DNA of 64,000 nt from Escherichia coli (GTDB lineage Bacteria > Pseudomonadota > Gammaproteobacteria > Enterobacterales > Enterobacteriaceae): the NCBI RefSeq assembly GCF_003018255.1, contig NZ_CP027440.1, one strand, 5' to 3'. This document shows, piece after piece, positions 3,885-51,670 of this stretch. Both the position numbers and the translations under genes were made by a program. Every line of letters starts with the position of its first letter. The first letter of the stretch is position 1. The notes under the pieces were generated by a model. It did not search any database and was not told the DNA's origin. It saw only the letters and a program-made list of their open reading frames with translations.

Positions 3885-4943
3885 ATGTTTAATACTGTAA
3901 AAATATCCAGTTGTGAGTTAATCAACGCTGACTGCCTGGAATTTATCCGGTCGTTACCCGAAAATTCTGTTGACCTGATAGTCACGGACCCGCCGTACTT
4001 TAAAGTGAAGCCTGAGGGCTGGGATAACCAGTGGAAGGGCGACGATGACTACCTGAAGTGGCTGGACCTGTGTCTGGCGCAGTTCTGGCGGGTGCTGAAA
4101 CCTGCCGGAAGTCTTTACCTGTTCTGTGGCCATCGCCTGGCATCTGACATTGAAATCATGATGCGTGAACGCTTCAGTGTGCTGAACCATATTATCTGGG
4201 CAAAGCCGTCCGGACGCTGGAACGGGTGCAACAAGGAAAGCCTGCGGGCGTATTTCCCCGCCACAGAGCGCATTCTGTTCGCGGAACATTATCAGGGGCC
4301 GTATCGCCCGAAAGATGCCGGGTATGAGGCGAAGGGCAGGGCACTGAAACAGCATGTGATGGCCCCGCTGATTTCTTACTTTCGTGATGCGCGTGCTGCC
4401 CTGGGGATAACGGCAAAACAGATAGTGGATGCCACAGGAAAGAAAAACATGGTGTCGCACTGGTTCAGTGCCAGTCAGTGGCAGCTACCGAACGAAAGCG
4501 ATTATCTGAAATTACAGGCGCTGTTTGCCCGGGTGGCAGAAGAGAAGCATCAGCGGGGGGAACTGGAGAAGCCCCACCACCAGCTGCTGGAGACGTATAC
4601 TTCACTGAACCGGCAGTATGCGGAACTGCAGAGTGAATATAAGCATCTGCGGCGGTATTTTGGCGTGACGGCGCAGGTGCCGTACACGGATGTGTGGACG
4701 CATAAACCGGTGCAGTACTATCCCGGGAAACATCCGTGCGAAAAACCGGCAGAAATGCTGCAGCAGATAATCAGCGCGAGCAGTCGTCCGGGTGACCTGG
4801 TTGCAGATTTTTTCATGGGGTCGGGTTCGACAGTCAAAGCCGCGATGGCGCTGGGGCGTCGTGCAACTGGCGTTGAGCTGGAGACTGAACGTTTTGAGCA
4901 GACGGTCAGGGAAGTTCAGGATTTAGTCAGTCAGAACGGATGA
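3885..4943 (+). CDS. orphan DNA N6-adenine/N4-cytosine methyltransferase (beta-class, N6_N4_Mtase type)
   Basis: 352 aa. DPPY catalytic motif near the N-terminus (VTDPPYF) and the AdoMet motif FMGSGST near the C-terminus. No adjacent restriction gene. Confidence 0.9.
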   Translation: MFNTVKISSCELINADCLEFIRSLPENSVDLIVTDPPYFKVKPEGWDNQWKGDDDYLKWLDLCLAQFWRVLKPAGSLYLFCGHRLASDIEIMMRERFSVLNHIIWAKPSGRWNGCNKESLRAYFPATERILFAEHYQGPYRPKDAGYEAKGRALKQHVMAPLISYFRDARAALGITAKQIVDATGKKNMVSHWFSASQWQLPNESDYLKLQALFARVAEEKHQRGELEKPHHQLLETYTSLNRQYAELQSEYKHLRRYFGVTAQVPYTDVWTHKPVQYYPGKHPCEKPAEMLQQIISASSRPGDLVADFFMGSGSTVKAAMALGRRATGVELETERFEQTVREVQDLVSQNG

Positions 4944-4945
4944 TA

Positions 4946-4974
4946 TTGCAGGATTAGTTACGTACCGTTATTAT
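4946..4974 (+). promoter_or_regulatory. promoter of the phage tRNA genes
   Basis: TTGCAG, 17-bp spacer, TATTAT; ends 9 bp before the first tRNA. Confidence 0.6.
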
Positions 4975-4983
4975 CCTGCGACC

Positions 4984-5059
4984 GGCCCTTTAGCTCAGTG
5001 GTGAGAGCGAGCGACTCATAATCGCCAGGTCGCTGGTTCAAATCCAGCAAGGGCCACCA
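4984..5059 (+). tRNA. tRNA with CAU anticodon, ileX/ileZ-like (Ile2 lysidine type; Met cannot be excluded)
   Basis: Hand-folded cloverleaf: acceptor GGCCCTT/AAGGGCC, D arm GCTC..GAGC, anticodon loop CTCATAA, T arm GCTGG-TTCAAAT-CCAGC, encoded CCA. Closely resembles my recollection of E. coli ileX. Confidence 0.85.
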
Positions 5060-5068
5060 TATCACATA

Positions 5069-5145
5069 CCGCCATTAGCTCATCGGGATAGAGCGCCAGC
5101 CTTCGAAGCTGGCTGCGCGGGGTTCGAGTCCTCGATGGCGGTCCA
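5069..5145 (+). tRNA. tRNA-Arg (UCG anticodon)
   Basis: Hand-folded cloverleaf: acceptor CCGCCAT/ATGGCGG, D arm GCTC..GAGC, anticodon stem CCAGC/GCTGG with loop CTTCGAA, T loop GGTTCGAGTCC, encoded CCA. Confidence 0.8.
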
Positions 5146-5423
5146 TTATCTGCATTATGCGTTGTTGGTTCTGATGAGTGAATCATTGTCTTTTGAGCAA
5201 CAGGCTATCATATAAGATAGCCTCAGACTTCCTTGTTTATTCTCGCCGGATGCTTCGTAGATATTTGCAGGCATCTGTATGCAGGGGTATTATTGCGGCA
5301 TATATCATCCGGAAAAATAAAAACTACATGCTGATCCGGAGATGATAGTTACAAGTCCTCCCGGATCCCGCATATTTACTATATTTTATAGATAATTGTT
5401 CTTGTTAATATGGAGATGGATAA

Positions 5424-5852
5424 ATGTATTGCCGTGCTGTACCTGTTCTTGTTTTGATATTAGCCAGTCTGACAACTGGCTGCACAAAAGATGTATCGAC
5501 AAATAATCATGATGCTTCTCTGTATCACTCAGATAAATTAATAACGTCGCAAAAATTGAGCTCATCGGAACGTACCCCTGATGCCAGTGAAGAAATCCGG
5601 CAGTATGCCATTCAGGTCAGGAAAGCCATAGAAGAACAGTTAAAGGATGCGAGTAAGTATTCAGGAAAAGAGTGTTCACTGAGAATGTATATGGCCCCGA
5701 ATGGTCTTCTGCTACGGGTTAAAAGAGAAAGCGGTGATCCCGATTTATGTCGTGAAGCGATGAATGCAGTAAAGAATGCTGATATACCATCACCACCGTC
5801 TTCAGGAGTATATAAAGCATTTAGAAATGGCGTGCTGGATTTTAAACTCTGA
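5424..5852 (+). CDS. lipoprotein carrying a TolA C-terminal (domain III)-like domain
   Basis: 142 aa. Signal peptide plus lipobox LTTG|C. The C-terminal ~85 aa align with the remembered E. coli TolA C-terminus (YSGKECSLRMYMAPNGLLLRV..GDPDLCREAMNAV...PSPPSSGVYKAFRNGVLDFKL vs YAGKTCTLRIKLAPDGMLLDI..GDPALCQAALAAA...PKPPSQAVYEVFKNAPLDFKP). Confidence 0.8.
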   Translation: MYCRAVPVLVLILASLTTGCTKDVSTNNHDASLYHSDKLITSQKLSSSERTPDASEEIRQYAIQVRKAIEEQLKDASKYSGKECSLRMYMAPNGLLLRVKRESGDPDLCREAMNAVKNADIPSPPSSGVYKAFRNGVLDFKL

Positions 5853-5906
5853 CAGGGGGAGAAGATTTTCTCCTGTCCTGATGATTTTGGGGCGCTGGAA
5901 AGATAT

Positions 5907-6164
5907 TGTGCTGTGAAGTGTTAAATCCCTCACAATTCAGTAAGTTGACAGTTGCCTGTCAGACTGAGCATTTGTTAAAAAAATTTCGCATGGTGAATCC
6001 CCCTGTGCGGAGGGGCGACTGGTGAACGGTATGATCTCTTTGATGATCGTAAGCGAGAATACGCGGGTTTGGTGTCACCGGGCTGAACTCACCGGGAGGC
6101 ACCCGGCACCATGCTCATGGTGATACAGAAATGCGGCTTCAGCCCCTCTCCGGAGGGGCTTTCT
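5907..6164 (+). ncRNA. solitary copy (unit A) of the ~250-bp structured-RNA unit
   Basis: Same four conserved boxes as the 7885-8904 array. Closing stem 5988-5995 GCATGGTG / 6107-6114 CACCATGC. Terminator GCCCCTC-TCCG-GAGGGGC at 6141-6157. Confidence 0.5.
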
Positions 6165-6170
6165 TATGGA

Positions 6171-6239
6171 CAAAAAAAGCCCGCGCTGGGAGACGCGGGC
6201 GGCAAGGAATAAACAATAAAACGTGAAGTAATACTTCAA
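6171..6239 (-). ncRNA. candidate small RNA, copy 1 (promoter to intrinsic terminator)
   Basis: Minus strand: TTGCGC (6275-6270), 18-bp spacer, TATTAT (6251-6246), then ~69 nt ending in GCCCGCG-TCTCCCAG-CGCGGGC plus U7. Paralogue at 8911-8989. Confidence 0.5.
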
Positions 6240-6320
6240 CTGGCGAATAATACCCGACAGTAATCACTCTGCGCAATAGCGTGGCCTTTTTCGAATTGCG
6301 GGCTGTAGTCTCCCTTCTGC

Positions 6321-6484
6321 CGGGTGTCCTGGTTGCAGATTTCTTCATGGGGTAGGGTTCGGCAGTTAAAGCAGCGATGGTGCTGGGGCGTCGTGCAACT
6401 GGCGTTGAGCTGGATACCGGGCGTTTTGAACAGACTGCGCAGGAAATCAGGGATGTATTTAGCGGGAGCGGTTTGCAGAAGTAA
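6321..6484 (+). pseudogene. 3'-terminal remnant of a second DNA methyltransferase gene
   Basis: Nucleotide-level similarity to 4789-4943 (CCTGGTTGCAGATTT..TTCATGGGGT.GGGTTCG...GGGGCGTCGTGCAACTGGCGTTGAGCTGGA). Has an in-frame TAG (ATG GGG TAG) and lacks the 5' ~900 bp. Confidence 0.8.
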
Positions 6485-6547
6485 TCTCCCAAAATGCCAT
6501 TTTTGGAATATACTGGTATTAAGTCTTTTTGCTCAGGTTAATTCAAA

Positions 6548-7273
6548 ATGGATGTTGCCTGCTCTGTGGTCCTGATTCGCTATCCGATAGATATTTTTCT
6601 TGAAAAAGAAAAAGTTTCACTCGATGCCGGAAGTGTTATGCTTGTTGCCAGAAATATAAGAGGGCTTTTCTGTGCTTATGCCGACAGAGTGAAAATGGCA
6701 GATATAAGTAACAGCGTCGTCAATCAGTATCTGGAAAGGGAGTGTGAACTGACGGAGTATACACCGACAAAAATGCCTCTTTATTTGATGTCTGATATTT
6801 ACAATACGGAACTGGCGGAGGCTTTAATAACCCAGCATAGTGAATCCAGTGATACTTTGAAGGATTTCTCTGTTATAACCGCATTTTCATGTATCTCCTT
6901 ATTTGCAACAGACAGACGTCTGCCATTATTTTTGTCCGGTGCTGTAAATAATATCAGCTGTAAAGTAAGGGCTATAATTCAGACCGACATATCGGCAGGC
7001 TGGATGCTTGGTGTGATTGCATTACAATTGCATATGAGCGAAAGCTTGTTGAAGCGAAAACTTAAGGATGAAGGTTATAGCTTTAGTCGGTTGTTGCTGG
7101 AGGAGCGAATGCGTGTTGCTGTTAATCTTGTATGTTTCCAGCGAGAGTGTGGACAAGCGATAGCGGAAAAATGTGGTTACTCAAGTAAGTCCTACTTCAT
7201 TTCTGTATTTCACCAGTATTATGGTGCACCACCTGAGAGCTATGCATATTTGCAGAAAGCAGACGTTATCTGA
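6548..7273 (+). CDS. AraC/XylS-family transcriptional regulator (prophage Psr/PatE-like)
   Basis: 241 aa. The C-terminal double HTH is typical of AraC (LLKRKLKDEGYSFSRLLLEERMRVAVNLV...IAEKCGYSSKSYFISVFHQYYGAPP). AT-rich moron. Confidence 0.8.
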   Translation: MDVACSVVLIRYPIDIFLEKEKVSLDAGSVMLVARNIRGLFCAYADRVKMADISNSVVNQYLERECELTEYTPTKMPLYLMSDIYNTELAEALITQHSESSDTLKDFSVITAFSCISLFATDRRLPLFLSGAVNNISCKVRAIIQTDISAGWMLGVIALQLHMSESLLKRKLKDEGYSFSRLLLEERMRVAVNLVCFQRECGQAIAEKCGYSSKSYFISVFHQYYGAPPESYAYLQKADVI

Positions 7274-7362
7274 TGTTTTTTCATCAGGCATATATTGATT
7301 GACTGTATTAGATATAGTCTGAATGTGTTCAGCATAAAAAGTTATAATCATTTGGTGTTTGC

Positions 7363-7641
7363 GTGAATATTGATGAGAAAATCAGATGTAGCCAACTGTT
7401 ACAGCGTATTGAAGCCGTCAATGTGGAACGAACAAAGGTCTTCAGTCGTCTGACAGTTTTATTTTGTACCCCTGATCGACGTTCAGGTCAGGAGATGGTT
7501 CTTCTGGATGTAGATGCACTTCGGAACGTCTGTGAGGAGTTCACCGCGGCTAATTCGGAGTTACTGAGTCTTGTTCAGGAGTACAACAGAATTGCAGGTA
7601 GTAACGGTTTTGATGAAATCAAAATTATATCCCGTGGATAA
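7363..7641 (+). CDS. hypothetical protein
   Basis: 92 aa, GTG start. Followed by the CCTGTAT...ATACAGG hairpin plus T-run (7651-7680). No family recognised. Confidence 0.4.
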   Translation: MNIDEKIRCSQLLQRIEAVNVERTKVFSRLTVLFCTPDRRSGQEMVLLDVDALRNVCEEFTAANSELLSLVQEYNRIAGSNGFDEIKIISRG

Positions 7642-7884
7642 AACATATCCTGTATATTTATGTTGTTACATACAGGCGCTTTTAGTATCTGCCGCACGGC
7701 AGTTGTACTTCAGAATAAGATGCTTTTGTGACTGGTGGTGTTGTATCTGGGGTTAGCCAGTAGGCAGGTTCAGAGAGTCCGGTGGTAATTATGTGTATGC
7801 AGTGGTTGTTGCTGTACCGTGGGCAAGTTCTGGAACTGGCTTCGTCCATTGTAGATGATTGTTAGCTGGATATCAGTTACCTCA

Positions 7885-8904
7885 TGGAAATGTTAAATGA
7901 CTCACAATTCGGTTGATGGGCTATTGTCTGATCGATGGAAGTCTTGTAAAAACGAGCCAGCATAGTGAATCCCCCTGTGCGGAGGGGCGTCTGACATGGT
8001 CTCCATAGCGATGGTCACAATACGCAGATTCAGTAGTCAGGCTGAATCTACCGGGAGGCACCCGGCACTATGCTGCTTATGGTGTATACATAGCGATCGG
8101 CCCCTCTCCGGAGGGGCTTTTTTTGTGCGGGAAAAGGCTGTGTTGTTAAGTGTTAAATTCCTCACAGTTCGGATGGTTGATGCTTGCCTGTCTGAGGGGG
8201 AGTTGTTAAAAAAGTTCTGCATGGTGAATCCCCCTGTGCGGAGGGGCGACTGGTGTGATTTGCATCTTTTCTGTTGTAGGCAATGCAAACGCGGGTTCAG
8301 GGACGCCAGACTGGACTCACCGGGAGGCACCCGGCACCATGTTCATGATGATACAGATACGCAGTGTCAGCCCCTCTCCTGAGGGGCTTTTTTATGCAGG
8401 AAAAACGCTGTGTTGTGAAATGTTAAATTCCTCACAGTTCAGATGGTTGATGCTTGCCTGTCTGAGGGGGAGTTGTTAAAAAAGTTCTGCATGGTGAATC
8501 CCCCTGAGCGGAGGGGCATATCAGCGCAGGTGTTTCTACTCTATCCTTTCTGTGCGGGTTCAGGTGCTGATACTGAACTCACCGGGAGGCACCCGGCATC
8601 ATGCATATGGTTAACAGACACGTAGCGAAGCCCCTCTCCGGAGGGGCTTTTTTATGCAGGGAAAAGGCTGTGTTGTGAAATGTTAAATTCCTCACAATTC
8701 ATGAGGTTGATGATTGTCTGATTGATGAGGAGTTTGTTAAAAAAAACGGGCATGGTGAATCCCCCTGTGCGGAGGGGTGATATCGTATCATTTCCTGTGT
8801 GGCCGACTGATATCACGGACATTTGTTCACCGGGAGGCACCCGGCACCATGCAGTATACAGAGATTAGGCATACATCCAGGCTCCTCATCGCAGGAGCCT
8901 TTTT
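7885..8904 (+). repeat. tandem array of four ~240-270-bp structured-RNA units (B 7885-8124, C 8125-8393, D 8394-8653, E 8654-8904)
   Basis: Each unit has box 1 TGTTAAAT.CCTCACA(A/G)TTC, box 2 TTGTTAAAAAA..GCATGGTGAATCCCCCTGTGCGGAGGGGC, box 3 CACCGGGAGGCACCCGGCACCATG, and an intrinsic terminator with a T-run. The ORFs crossing the units differ in frame and length. Confidence 0.85.
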
Positions 8905-8910
8905 ACATGT

Positions 8911-8989
8911 AAAAAAAAACCGCTCCTGGGAAGAGCGGTTGGCAAGGAAGCAAGGAATAAATAACAAAACGTGAAGTAATTTATTCAGC
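8911..8989 (-). ncRNA. candidate small RNA, copy 2 (promoter to intrinsic terminator)
   Basis: Minus strand: TTGCGC (9025-9020), 18-bp spacer, TATTAT (9001-8996), then ~79 nt ending in AACCGCTC-TTCCCAG-GAGCGGTT plus U9. Shares the core TTACTTCACGTTTT.TT.TTTATTCCTTGC with copy 1. Confidence 0.55.
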
Positions 8990-9137
8990 ACCCTAATAAT
9001 ACCTTAGAGTAATCACCTTGCGCAACTGTAAGGGCGTATTTCTTTTTTGCGGGCTGTTTTTCTGTGTGACTTTTGTGTTTCCGGTGGTCAGCCCGTGCCT
9101 TCTCTGACTCAGAACATTATCCCGGCCGGGAGGATTC

Positions 9138-11102
9138 ATGGCATTTAAACACTACGATGTGGTCAGGGCGGCATCGCCGTCAGACCTTGCTGAACGACTG
9201 ACACAAAAACTGAAGGAGGGCTGGCAGCCATTTGGCAGTCCGGTGGCCATCACGCCTTATACCCTGATGCAGGCCATTGCGGCGGAAGGTGATGTCACCA
9301 CACCAGTGGCGGTGACCGGTAATGAGGGTAAGGTGGTGGCTGTCAGTGCCACCAGCGACCCGGAGTATTACTTTGTTGTGGTTCTGGCAGGGCAGTCAAA
9401 TGGCATGTCGTATGGTGAAGGTCTTCCGCTGCCGGAGACATATGACCGTCCGGACCCGCGCATTAAGCAGCTGGCGCGCCGCAGTACGGTGACACCGGGC
9501 GGTGTTGCCTGTAAATATAACGACATCATTCCGGCGGACCATTGTCTGCATGATGTGCAGGACATGAGCCGTCTTAACCATCCGAAAGCGGACCTGTCAA
9601 AGGGGCAGTACGGTACCGTGGGGCAGGGGCTGCATATCGCCAAAAAATTGCTGCCGTTTATACCGGCGAATGCGGGCATTCTGCTGGTTCCGTGCTGTCG
9701 TGGTGGTTCAGCGTTCACCACCGGAGCTGATGGCACATACAGTGACGCGAGTGGTGCCTCGGAGAATTCAACCCGCTGGGGTGTGGACAAGCCGCTGTAT
9801 AAGGACCTTATCGGTCGAACAAAAGCAGCACTGAAGAAGAACCCGAAAAATGTGCTGTTTGCCGTGGTGTGGATGCAGGGGGAATTTGATTTTGGCGGTA
9901 CGCCGGTAAATCACGCAGCACAGTTTGGTGCGCTGGTTGATAAATTCCGTGCAGACCTGGCGGATATGGCAGGCCAGTGCGTCAGTGGCTCTGCTGGCAG
10001 TGTTCCCTGGATATGCGGGGACACGACGTATTTCTGGAAGCAGAAGAACGAATCCACGTACCAGACGGTGTACGGCAGCTATAAAAACAAAACGGAAAAG
10101 AATATCCATTTCGTACCGTTCATGACGGATGAGAACGGGGTGAATGTGCCGACGAACAAACCGGAAGAAGACCCGGACATTCCGGGTATCGGGTATTACG
10201 GTTCGAAATGGCGTGACAGCTCAGCCACCTGGACGTCACAGGACAGGGCGAGCCATTTCAGCACCTGGGCACGCCGGGGGATTATTTCCGACCGTCTGGC
10301 AACGGCGATTCTGGTGCACGCCGGGAGAACCGCTGAATTCATTACCGGAAAACAGCCTGATATGGTGAAGCCCACCGTACCTTCCGGTGAAGGTCCGGAG
10401 AGAGAGGCGGAAGCCCCGGTCAGTAACCGAACCCTGATGAGTCTGCTGGCATCCGGCGAAGACCTGGCATCACAGGGCTGGCGCTATTATCACAAACCGG
10501 CGGGCGGAGACAGTGTTAACAAAAACATTGCTGAAGCGGTGGTCAGTGATGCGGGGGCTACGGGAGGTAAGGCCCTGCAACTGAACAAACCGGAAAACCA
10601 CATCTGGTTTCTGGAGCATGATGCAGCCGGACAGGGTGCGGAGTTACTGAAGAAGGGCGGACGTGTGAGCGTACGGTTTAAGTTGCCGGGTTCACTGGTG
10701 CCGAATCAGTTTGCCCTGGGCATTTACTGGCAGTTGTCGTCCCTGCCGGAGGGGGTGACGCTGTCAGGAGAAGGTAACGATATGCTGATGTCTTTCTTCC
10801 TGCAGACGGATACGACGAACCTGAACGCGATGCATCACAGGAAGCCGAATGCGAAGCTGGATACATTCGGGGTCTTTGATAACGGATGGCACACGCTGGC
10901 TTTTGAGTTTGCCGGAAACAACAGCATTCAGGTGACACCAGTACTGGATGAGAAACGGGGAGCGGCGTTCACACTGGTGAAGTCACCGGCATCGGGGGCG
11001 GCGGACAAACTGCAACTGACCGATATATCAAAATCGGCGACGTATACGCTGCTGATTGACAGCATTGCGGTGGAAGTGAACAGCACAGACACTGCGGCAT
11101 GA
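9138..11102 (+). CDS. NanS-p-type prophage sialate O-acetylesterase (DUF1737 + SASA esterase + C-terminal lectin-like domain)
   Basis: 654 aa. The N-terminus MAFKHYDVV...GWQPFGSP is DUF1737-like. The block VVLAGQSNGMSYG is a GDSL/SASA-type catalytic motif. It sits upstream of the lysis genes, as for nanS-p genes of EHEC lambdoid prophages. Confidence 0.8.
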   Translation: MAFKHYDVVRAASPSDLAERLTQKLKEGWQPFGSPVAITPYTLMQAIAAEGDVTTPVAVTGNEGKVVAVSATSDPEYYFVVVLAGQSNGMSYGEGLPLPETYDRPDPRIKQLARRSTVTPGGVACKYNDIIPADHCLHDVQDMSRLNHPKADLSKGQYGTVGQGLHIAKKLLPFIPANAGILLVPCCRGGSAFTTGADGTYSDASGASENSTRWGVDKPLYKDLIGRTKAALKKNPKNVLFAVVWMQGEFDFGGTPVNHAAQFGALVDKFRADLADMAGQCVSGSAGSVPWICGDTTYFWKQKNESTYQTVYGSYKNKTEKNIHFVPFMTDENGVNVPTNKPEEDPDIPGIGYYGSKWRDSSATWTSQDRASHFSTWARRGIISDRLATAILVHAGRTAEFITGKQPDMVKPTVPSGEGPEREAEAPVSNRTLMSLLASGEDLASQGWRYYHKPAGGDSVNKNIAEAVVSDAGATGGKALQLNKPENHIWFLEHDAAGQGAELLKKGGRVSVRFKLPGSLVPNQFALGIYWQLSSLPEGVTLSGEGNDMLMSFFLQTDTTNLNAMHHRKPNAKLDTFGVFDNGWHTLAFEFAGNNSIQVTPVLDEKRGAAFTLVKSPASGAADKLQLTDISKSATYTLLIDSIAVEVNSTDTAA

Positions 11103-42660: not shown

Positions 42661-42714
42661 AACGATAACTCCGTACATTTGAAAATTATCGCCACCTTCA
42701 GGTTCCAATCATCA

Positions 42715-42791
42715 TGGTGGCGAACTGTGCGGGGTTGGAACTACCGGGTACGGAAACCGGCGAGCCTTTCGGCTCCCCCACACAGCCCGCC
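42715..42791 (-). ncRNA. C4-type antisense RNA (P1/P7 immI-like), 77 nt
   Basis: 16-bp closing stem GGCGGGCUGUGUGGGG/CCCCGCACAGUUCGCC followed by ACCA. Inner hairpins are GAGCC-GAAA-GGCUC and CCGG-UUUCCGUAC-CCGG. Single-stranded AGUUCCAA and the loop are complementary to sites flanking the element on both sides. Confidence 0.65.
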
Positions 42792-42824
42792 ATAAATCGC
42801 GAATGTGACTGTGCAAACGATATG

Positions 42825-42901
42825 AAAAAAGACGCGGGCGCGTCTCATATCGCTCCGTAAACATCCGGGGTTCCAATCCCGACGCCAGATTTTGCTGACG
42901 C
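42825..42901 (-). ncRNA. short terminated leader RNA carrying the a1/b1 decoy sites
   Basis: From the predicted TSS (~42901) to the terminator GACGC-GCCC-GCGUC plus U6 (42846-42825). Contains GAUUGGAACC (42878-42869) and UUACGGAG (42860-42853). Confidence 0.5.
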
Positions 42902-51555: not shown

Positions 51556-51583
51556 AAAAAAAAGCCCGCTCATTAGGCGGGCT
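51556..51583 (-). terminator. trp attenuator (3:4 terminator hairpin)
   Basis: Minus strand: AGCCCGCCTAATGAGCGGGCT followed by U8. Confidence 0.95.
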
Positions 51584-51625
51584 GGGTATCTGATTGCTTT
51601 ACGCATGGTGAATACACTGCCCGTT

Positions 51626-51670
51626 TCAGGAAGTGCGCCACCAACCTTTCAGTACGAAAATTGCTTTCAT
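51626..51670 (-). CDS. trpL: trp operon leader peptide
   Basis: Minus strand ATGAAAGCAATTTTCGTACTGAAAGGTTGGTGGCGCACTTCCTGA = [14 protein letters not shown], with the tandem Trp codons. Confidence 0.97.

Follow-up and report, generated by a model that had tools for sequence, protein, structure and literature searches.

Here we report that a prophage of an Escherichia coli that produces Shiga toxin (STEC) carries five paralogous genes of the STnc100 family of small RNAs (sRNAs), four of which stand head to tail in an array. The sequence that we analysed, hereafter the window, is a stretch of 64,000 nucleotides (nt) from contig NZ_CP027440.1 (assembly GCF_003018255.1), and positions are those of the window unless another locus is named. 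The five related units, designated A to E, lie on the plus strand within 5900-8910; unit A is solitary, and units B to E follow one another across 7891-8905 (Table 1).

Identity and relatedness of the five units

The assignment to the STnc100 family comes from a comparison of the entire window with Rfam 15, in which all five units matched RF02076 (STnc100, “Gammaproteobacterial sRNA STnc100”) with 119.5-172.4 bits, the gathering score being 47. The matches span model positions 1-206 of 206 in every unit, and with E-values of 1e-25 to 4e-39 a chance match can be excluded. An initial annotation of the window, which was made from the sequence alone, had recognised the four head-to-tail units and the fifth solitary copy by boxes that they have in common, and both a script-based check and the Rfam matches bear this out; its statement that the RNA could not be placed in any known family is refuted by the same matches (119-172 bits). 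The RNA itself is already catalogued and is no new RNA class, the tandem arrangement of four genes being apparently the only unreported aspect.

Several members of the family have been studied in enterohaemorrhagic E. coli (EHEC) under other names, namely EcOnc27, which is identical with sRNA103, and EcOnc04, EcOnc05 and EcOnc06; these are Hfq-bound RNAs of ~177-247 nt (PMC4104026 for the EcOnc sizes). The EcOnc27 locus of Sakai prophage Sp5, which lies just downstream of stx2B with AsxR adjoining, scored 207.7 bits on RF02076, and the EcOnc27 Northern probe in the supplement of Tree et al. 2014 (PMC4104026) corresponds to the tail of unit E, so that the surmise in the initial annotation that the units might belong among the Hfq-bound sRNAs of EHEC prophages was correct. 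The EcOnc05 and EcOnc06 probes of the same supplement correspond to the region of helix P5 (see below). EcOnc27 gives Northern bands of ~235 and 247 nt, the 247-nt form being destabilised without hfq, and its Hfq crosslink peak (Sakai 1268411-1268490) spans the leader and helices P1 and P2, while EcOnc05 and EcOnc06 measure ~222 nt and ~177 nt, respectively (PMC4104026). In strain EDL933, 11 dispersed STnc100 copies are transcribed, with Northern blot confirmation for one (PMC5331693). Overexpression of sRNA103 raises the fimZ and espA transcripts by an unclear mechanism (PMC7873438), and haemolytic uraemic syndrome is predicted by single-nucleotide polymorphisms in the STnc100 copy downstream of stx2 (PMC12711010). 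STnc100 is among the most frequently annotated small RNAs of bacterial genomes, yet it has no assigned function (PMC9029176); a 2026 preprint (Zhu, Shabalina and Storz) connects PasD of enteropathogenic E. coli (EPEC) with it.

The units have diverged from one another in blocks. Whole-unit identity ranges from 55 to 79%, and the mean pairwise identity among A to E is 96% for P1-P2, 95% for P4 together with the 3′ strand of P1, 87% for the terminator and 70% for the leader, against 45% for P5, 44% for the tail and 32% for the variable segment. The tails (~25 nt) carry a common AUACAGA-like motif, and the program TRF reports a tandem repeat at 8100-8777 with a period of 270 and 82% matches. The units are also mosaic: in unit A it is the 5′ half, and in unit E the 3′ half, that is near-identical to EcOnc27 of Sp5.

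A covarying multi-helix core

Each unit has a conserved core, a multi-helix junction that is closed by helix P1 and contains P2, a variable segment, P5 and P4. P1 has 8 bp in every unit, and the P1 and P3 coordinates of the initial annotation all paired when checked by script. Units A (5988-5995/6107-6114) and E have eight Watson-Crick pairs, unit C has G-U as its first pair and unit D contains a single G-U pair; unit B (GCATAGTG/CACTATGC) shows a genuine two-sided compensatory change, and it differs from the other units by compensatory changes in P5 as well. The closing stem proposed earlier thus stands in all five units, including the double change in B and the G-U in D. Hairpin P4 (CCGGGAGGCACCCGG) is identical in all five, as had been stated, and hairpin P2 (CCCCT-GTGCGG-AGGGG) is present in all five but is not invariant, as its loop reads GAGCGG in unit D.

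A further helix, P5 (GGGTTCAG/CTGAACTC), adjoins P4 and had been overlooked; it is present in units A to D and reduced to 4 bp in unit E. The consensus helices of the family (P1; P2, CCCCU/AGGGG; P5, GGGUUcaG/CugAACUC; P4, CCGGG/CCCGG) all occur in A to D, with E missing most of P5, and minimum-energy folds of each core on its own recovered P1, P2, P5 and P4 together with one to three variable hairpins. Given this extra covarying helix and the fold results, the core is a junction of at least five helices and not a cloverleaf, and the “four-helix, tRNA-like” layout of the initial annotation has to be given up.

To assess covariation across a broader sample, we built a covariance model, R1, from the five cores and gathered 135 copies from species-representative genomes of ~20 Enterobacterales genera, several of which also exceed the Rfam gathering score. 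Covariation was evaluated in 131 distinct copies, using an alignment that was fitted to the model and a retrieval pattern that fixed parts of P2 and P4. Paired cells amounted to 95.0%, compared with 79.6% after shuffling and 39-52% when the partners were slid, and two-sided changes occurred at 20 of 26 pairs; the covariation score was 0.433 against 0.146 for shuffled alignments, none of 500 shuffles reaching it. P1 covaried at 7/8 pairs and P5 (GGGUUCAG/CUGAACUC) at 8/8, as many as six pair types being seen at a single position. The claims of a truly covarying closing stem and of conservation at the RNA level are therefore upheld. In the 21 copies that fall outside the retrieval pattern, P4 contains compensated C-G to U-A changes, and unpaired nucleotides are near-invariant: AAUC in J1/2 was found in 18-21 of the 21, GCG of the P2 loop in 20-21 and AGGCA of the P4 loop in 19.

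The central hairpin P3 fared less well. Although its listed coordinates pair, the unit D version (8519-8525/8566-8572) involves pairing with the P5 loop and does not appear in the minimum-energy fold, and across 122 copies the self-complementarity of the segment between P2 and P5 is not above that of shuffled sequence (mean z -0.16). We therefore rejected P3 as a conserved hairpin of the family. Two other structural candidates were considered. In unit A the sequences of the P2 hairpin (CCCCCTGTGCGGAGGGGC, 5999-6016) and of the terminator hairpin (GCCCCTCTCCGGAGGGGC, 6142-6159) hardly differ, as is also the case in units B to D, so that their strands could cross-pair; the complementarity between the P2 3′ strand and the terminator 5′ strand is nonetheless confined to units A to D, and neither a conserved antiterminator nor an alternative hairpin with the P1 3′ strand was found in unit E or in other genera. 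A kissing interaction between UGC of the P2 loop and GCA of the P4 loop, considered by eye, is broken in unit D.

Terminators and candidate start sites

A terminator scan of 5800-9200 returned 14 terminator-like sites where 3.1 were expected, and it found a hairpin after each of the five units, 25-27 nt past P1 (Table 1), in agreement with the earlier claim that every unit has its own terminator. Units A to D end in GCCCCTCTCC[G/T]GAGGGGC followed by a T-run, which is weak in unit A, and unit E ends in a different hairpin, as had also been noted.

Upstream of the core, each unit has one box 1 (TGTTAAAT), an extended -10 motif ~56 nt before P1, and a box 2 that consists of TTGcCT, a spacer of 17-18 nt and TGtTAAAAA, followed by 7-9 nt to P1. 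Each unit, equipped with an intrinsic terminator and an extended -10 box, looks like a transcription unit of its own. Transcripts ending at the unit's terminator would measure about 211-234 nt if started at box 1 (long form) and about 155-177 nt if started at box 2 (short form). The Sp5 start homologous to box 1 predicts ~228 nt, close to the 235-nt band of EcOnc27, and the Hfq crosslinks within the EcOnc27 leader show that this leader is transcribed. The arrangement of box 2 recurs in PasD2, the RNA-seq 5′ end of which coincides with the initial base of P1 and lies downstream of TTGACT-18-TAAAAA, and which has its seed in the tail (PMC8550237); in other genera, a -10-like box lies 7-10 nt before P1.

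Prophage context and convergent partners

The window is an STEC prophage of the lambdoid kind, and the units occupy its “moron” zone, flanked by Q/PR′ on one side and by the nanS-p esterase and lysis genes on the other. Over 3.3 kb the locus shares 99.8% identity with that of O91:H21 FWSEC0008, and it is found at ≥80% coverage in 78 of 5426 complete E. coli genomes. According to the RefSeq annotation of the 99.8% identical locus, the gene order is Q, a methyltransferase gene, tRNA-Ile and tRNA-Arg, a gene with a TolA C-terminal domain, unit A, a methyltransferase pseudogene fragment, an AraC-type regulator gene, units B to E (unannotated), a SASA (nanS-p type) esterase gene and a holin gene. 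Unit A lies ~1.7 kb upstream of the array in the same prophage. The methyltransferase fragment directly after it echoes the intact gene upstream of the tRNAs and marks a joint within the moron zone, either mosaic or due to duplication.

Both unit A and the array face a convergent gene on the minus strand (Table 1). Alignment of 6166-6330(-) with 8906-9070(-) shows that the two partners are homologous, and both are of the EcOnc08/21/42 type; each has a terminator of its own, which leaves 7-13 nt to the end of the STnc100 gene, and neither is annotated in RefSeq. The EcOnc08/21/42 probe AATAATATCCGACAGTAATCACTCTGCGCAATAGC matches the partner of unit A at 6246-6280 with 1 mismatch, where 0 such matches are expected; the published RNA of this type is ~271 nt long (PMC4104026 supplement). 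Convergent “dyads” between PR′ and the lysis genes are known from at least eight Sakai prophages (PMC4104026, PMC7873438), and the array is the plus-strand half of such an sRNA dyad, expanded to four genes.

Farther along the window (42713-42901 (-) and 51556-51649 (-)), a C4 antisense RNA and isrK that lie side by side suggest a second mobile element, and a trp operon leader shows that the window extends into chromosomal DNA.

Table 1 Coordinates of the STnc100 units, their parts, neighbouring genes and porin-leader loci.
Feature	Position	Strand	Remarks
Unit A, solitary STnc100 gene	5919..6165	+	RF02076 172.4 bits at 5959-6171; R1 155.7 bits; pairings and fold checked
Unit A, boxes and core	box 1 TGTTAAATC 5919-5927; box 2 TTGTTAAAAAAA ~5972-5983; core P1-P1′ 5988-6114	+	
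Unit A, 3′ parts	tail 6115-6140; terminator 6141-6160	+	tail single-stranded; terminator followed by TTTCTT
Unit B, first gene of array	7891..8125	+	RF02076 119.5 bits at 7931-8126; R1 136.4 bits
Unit B, parts	box 1 7891-7899; core 7960-8073; terminator 8099-8118	+	T7 after terminator
Unit C	8151..8394	+	RF02076 139.7 bits at 8190-8399; R1 150.5 bits
Unit C, parts	box 1 8151-8159; core 8219-8342; variable hairpin 8259-8265/8283-8289; terminator 8369-8388	+	T6 after terminator
Unit D	8421..8654	+	RF02076 141.2 bits at 8460-8659; R1 135.4 bits
Unit D, parts	box 1 8421-8429; core 8489-8604; terminator 8630-8647 (or about 8629-8648)	+	T6 after terminator
Unit E, last gene of array	8681..8905	+	RF02076 141.3 bits at 8721-8910; R1 110.9 bits
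Unit E, parts	box 1 8681-8689; core 8750-8852; terminator 8879-8900	+	P5 cut to ~4 bp; EcOnc27-type tail
Convergent partner of unit A	6172..6290	-	terminator stem 6200->6179; T-run 6178-6172; EcOnc08/21/42 probe match
Convergent partner of array	8906..9045	-	terminator stem 8940->8918; body homologous to region after unit A
tRNA genes downstream of Q	4984-5059; 5069-5145	+	first, anticodon CAT, Met by ARAGORN and Ile by RefSeq; second, Arg (TCG)
Moron, 142-aa protein with TolA C-terminal domain	5424-5852	+	Pfam E 1.1e-22; just upstream of unit A
DNA methyltransferase pseudogene fragment	6320-6484	+	RefSeq
AraC-type regulator gene	6548-7273	+	
92-aa open reading frame between AraC-type regulator gene and unit B	7363-7641	+	no Pfam match, no RefSeq annotation
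Porin-leader loci in other genomes	L113 1298-2229; L104 3529-4581; L129, L101, L109, L100, L089, L120, L171, L172, L098, L163, L134		

Tandem arrays and cores in other genomes

Tandem arrays of STnc100 units are recurrent and not unique to this window, although we found no description of tandem copies in the papers that mention STnc100. The unit-to-unit junction (8320-8500) was present at ≥80% coverage in 88 of 5426 complete E. coli genomes, and a search of IMG/VR with a P4-to-P4 spacing pattern yielded at least 80 loci; among the matches listed there are 29, 39 and 9 arrays of two, three and four units, respectively, and 265 covariance-model hits. Arrays of the type found in the window occur in IMG/VR contigs as B-C-D-E, B-D-E, B-D and B-E, and these variants lacking units suggest that units are gained and lost by recombination between the conserved blocks.

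Arrays of other types differ in whether their units are separated by terminators. In an unrelated three-unit array, the host of which may be Leclercia-like, every unit is followed by a terminator, and Superficieibacter arrays, with a period of ~260 bp, likewise have terminators. The three-unit array that is commonest in IMG/VR had no megablast match among deposited phages. On a Pantoea plasmid and in some IMG/VR contigs, the cores abut with spacers of 1-41 nt and no terminators between them. Three such loci (L108 944-2005 (-), which is the Pantoea plasmid, L047 6537-7072 and L079) are head-to-tail arrays of at least five cores with a single terminator at the end; more cores are visible within the “spacers”, and a TATAAT-like box precedes each core.

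Cores of this type also occur as leaders of protein-coding genes. In at least 13 species, among them members of Klebsiella, Kosakonia, Raoultella, Enterobacter and Citrobacter, a KdgM-family porin gene (KdgM Pfam E 3.8e-77) is preceded at 86-194 nt by an RF02076-type core in the same orientation, without an intervening terminator (Table 1), and in two Kosakonia loci (L135 5477-5597 and L117 1531-1631) a short-type core lies 158-195 nt upstream of a 301-aa flagellin-like open reading frame (ORF), again with no terminator between. The position before porin genes is a cis-leader context, unlike the sRNA context of the prophage copies. Enterobacterial-type STnc100 copies were also seen on contigs labelled Acidobacteria, Prolixibacteraceae, Mucilaginibacter, Vagococcus and Geobacteraceae (L092, L095, L123, L134 and L176); contamination or mis-binning is the most likely cause, and L134 also has an enterobacterial kdgM-type gene.

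Comparison with known systems

The closest known relatives of the units are the STnc100 genes of EHEC (EcOnc27/sRNA103 and EcOnc04/05/06) and Salmonella STnc100, which agree with them in the core helices, the terminator module, the position between PR′/Q and the lysis genes and the convergent dyad. Published copies are single genes, one per prophage (the 11 of EDL933 being dispersed), whereas here four stand head to tail and a fifth is present in the same prophage. PasD1 and PasD2 of EPEC E2348/69 (Pearl Mizrahi 2021; Zhu et al. 2026) resemble the units in having P1, P2 and P5 and in lying directly upstream of a SASA/nanS-p gene; they are Hfq-dependent, with the 5′ end at P1 and a seed in the tail before the terminator. 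They lack P4, and PasD2 scores 36.6 bits on the model of the units, compared with 111-156 for the units themselves, and falls below the Rfam gathering score; the PasD copies are reported as distal (Zhu et al.) and not in tandem as here. To judge from these sequence features, PasD is a related but distinct, degenerate subfamily. The leader of each unit contains CUCACA(A/G)UUC (5927-5937, 7899-7909, 8159-8169, 8429-8439 and 8689-8699). As CUCACA is the reported target motif of the PasD seed UGUGAG, a PasD-type RNA could pair with the 5′ end of long-form STnc100.

AgvB and AsxR (RF02702 and RF02703) belong to the same type of locus, where they stand opposite STnc100-type genes as the convergent partner in Sp5, Sp10 and Sp17, but they differ from the units in that they are 51-60 nt long with a conserved 3′ stretch of 42 nt, lie on the opposite strand and are not homologous; the partner in the window is of the EcOnc08/21/42 type. 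Their Rfam models gave no match in 4500-9500 even at E≤1, while AsxR scored 88.1 bits in the Sakai locus as a positive control, so that neither the units nor their partners are AgvB or AsxR. The anti-sRNA or sponge function that the initial annotation had considered belongs to this AgvB/AsxR type, which is a convergent partner in some prophages and was undetected here at E≤1. IpeX is a prophage small RNA, which belongs to the cryptic DLP12 and lies close to its late region. An identity with IpeX was rejected, since K-12 572000-580000 (DLP12) contains no STnc100 match, either with the R1 model at E≤1 or with Rfam. Adjacent paralogous genes for Hfq-associated sRNAs, each with its own promoter and terminator, exist in OmrA/OmrB and PrrF1/PrrF2. 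The analogy with the array is one of organisation only (conserved blocks with divergence elsewhere), as there is no sequence relationship, and those are pairs in core genomes, whereas this is a four-unit array in a prophage. Sibling sRNA genes of this kind also figure in the discussion of Zhu et al.

Possible functions of the array

Given the homology to characterised relatives, the units are probably five independent genes for Hfq-associated, trans-acting sRNAs. Each would be transcribed separately in the lysogen, with transcription stopping at its own terminator, and would bind Hfq through the A-rich leader and the U-tail. Base pairing in trans would involve the ~25-nt tail between core and terminator, perhaps also the variable segment, and the seed would lie in the tail as it does in the relative PasD (tail seed UGUGAG). 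Overall identity of the four units is 55-79% but falls to 32-44% in the variable segment and tail, and the array may therefore provide a higher dosage together with several specificities. After induction, Q-modified polymerase would be expected to read through all four terminators, and the array could grow or shrink through recombination between the conserved blocks.

Several observations weigh against this interpretation. The published effects of STnc100 itself are limited to those of sRNA103 overexpression (PMC7873438), and transcription of the units is expected from homology to characterised relatives. Both starts are consensus-level assignments, as a sigma-70 scan requiring a -35 element called neither box 1 nor box 2. 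Outside the E. coli type, any motif like box 1 was found in 19 of 132 copies at scattered positions, and we therefore rejected box 1 as a family-wide promoter. The near-invariant AAUC of J1/2, nnGCGg of the P2 loop and AGGCA of the P4 loop exceed what a passive scaffold needs, and the cores that serve as porin or flagellin leaders or stand in terminator-less arrays imply that trans pairing may not be the whole story.

These last points would be accommodated if the core were a functional module for binding either a small ligand or a protein, serving as a riboswitch-like sensor or else as a decoy, with the prophage sRNA as its mobile derivative and the arrays as a means of multiplying modules. 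In the 21 copies that were not pre-selected, the unpaired nucleotides are near-invariant while the stems covary; a multi-helix junction closed by P1 with a terminator 30-60 nt downstream is a typical aptamer architecture; and both the leader positions, before porin genes in at least 13 species and before the flagellin gene in two Kosakonia, and the terminator-less head-to-tail cores of the Pantoea plasmid and IMG/VR contigs fit such a role. We nevertheless regard it as unlikely, because we found no antiterminator or expression platform that is conserved (the similarity of P2 to the terminator in A to D being absent in E and in other genera), because many copies, these included, are orphan units before a convergent gene without a regulated ORF, because members of the family are abundant, discrete and Hfq-bound RNAs, and because no ligand or protein candidate is known. 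The more general proposition that the STnc100 core is a specific protein- or ligand-binding domain, used in cis in the porin and flagellin leaders and in trans in the prophage arrays, is similarly tentative and has a low probability in our estimate; we retain it on account of the invariant loops across ~20 genera, the terminator-less arrays and the cores upstream of surface-protein and sialate esterase genes.

A second alternative, which we also consider rather improbable, is that the units act mainly in cis. They would be boundary or insulator cassettes of morons, with stacked terminators that shield nanS-p and the lysis genes from moron and read-through transcription in the lysogen and an RNA that is largely a by-product; the terminators would be bidirectional together with the convergent partner, and the conserved blocks would act as recombination joints for the shuffling of morons. 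The arrangement of the locus is consistent with this, as one or more units follow each moron (A comes after the TolA-like gene, and B to E come after the AraC-type gene with the 92-aa ORF), the methyltransferase pseudogene fragment after unit A marks a mosaic joint, the units are mosaic with respect to EcOnc27 of Sp5, array variants without single units exist, and the dyads of the Sakai prophages occupy the same position. However, a terminator needs no core of 100-130 nt in which 20 pairs covary and the loops are invariant, and which is conserved in ~20 genera, many of the copies being outside prophages, and the units have promoter-like boxes while RNAs of the family accumulate and bind Hfq.

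The remaining idea, that RNase P or RNase Z processes the units as tRNA-like RNAs, or else that they are small-protein genes, starts from a superficial multi-hairpin shape with a closing stem and from open frames of 60-128 codons across the units, and we reject it as extremely improbable: ARAGORN and the Rfam tRNA model RF00005 recognise only the two tRNA genes at 4984 and 5069 and nothing in the units, the core of at least five helices is devoid of T-loop, anticodon and CCA features, and no P1-anchored frame is open in all units, as every such frame meets stops in each unit and the core lengths of A to E (127, 114, 124, 116 and 103 nt) differ by numbers that are not multiples of 3. The frame check in this respect sustains the earlier remark that ORFs crossing the units are conserved in neither frame nor length.

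Returning to the reading of the units as trans-acting sRNA genes, four diverged paralogues, together with arrays short of one or two units, constitute a natural dosage and specificity series for the function of the family. The data from other genera (covariation, invariant loops, cis-leader contexts and terminator-less arrays) could turn functional work on STnc100 towards the core domain.

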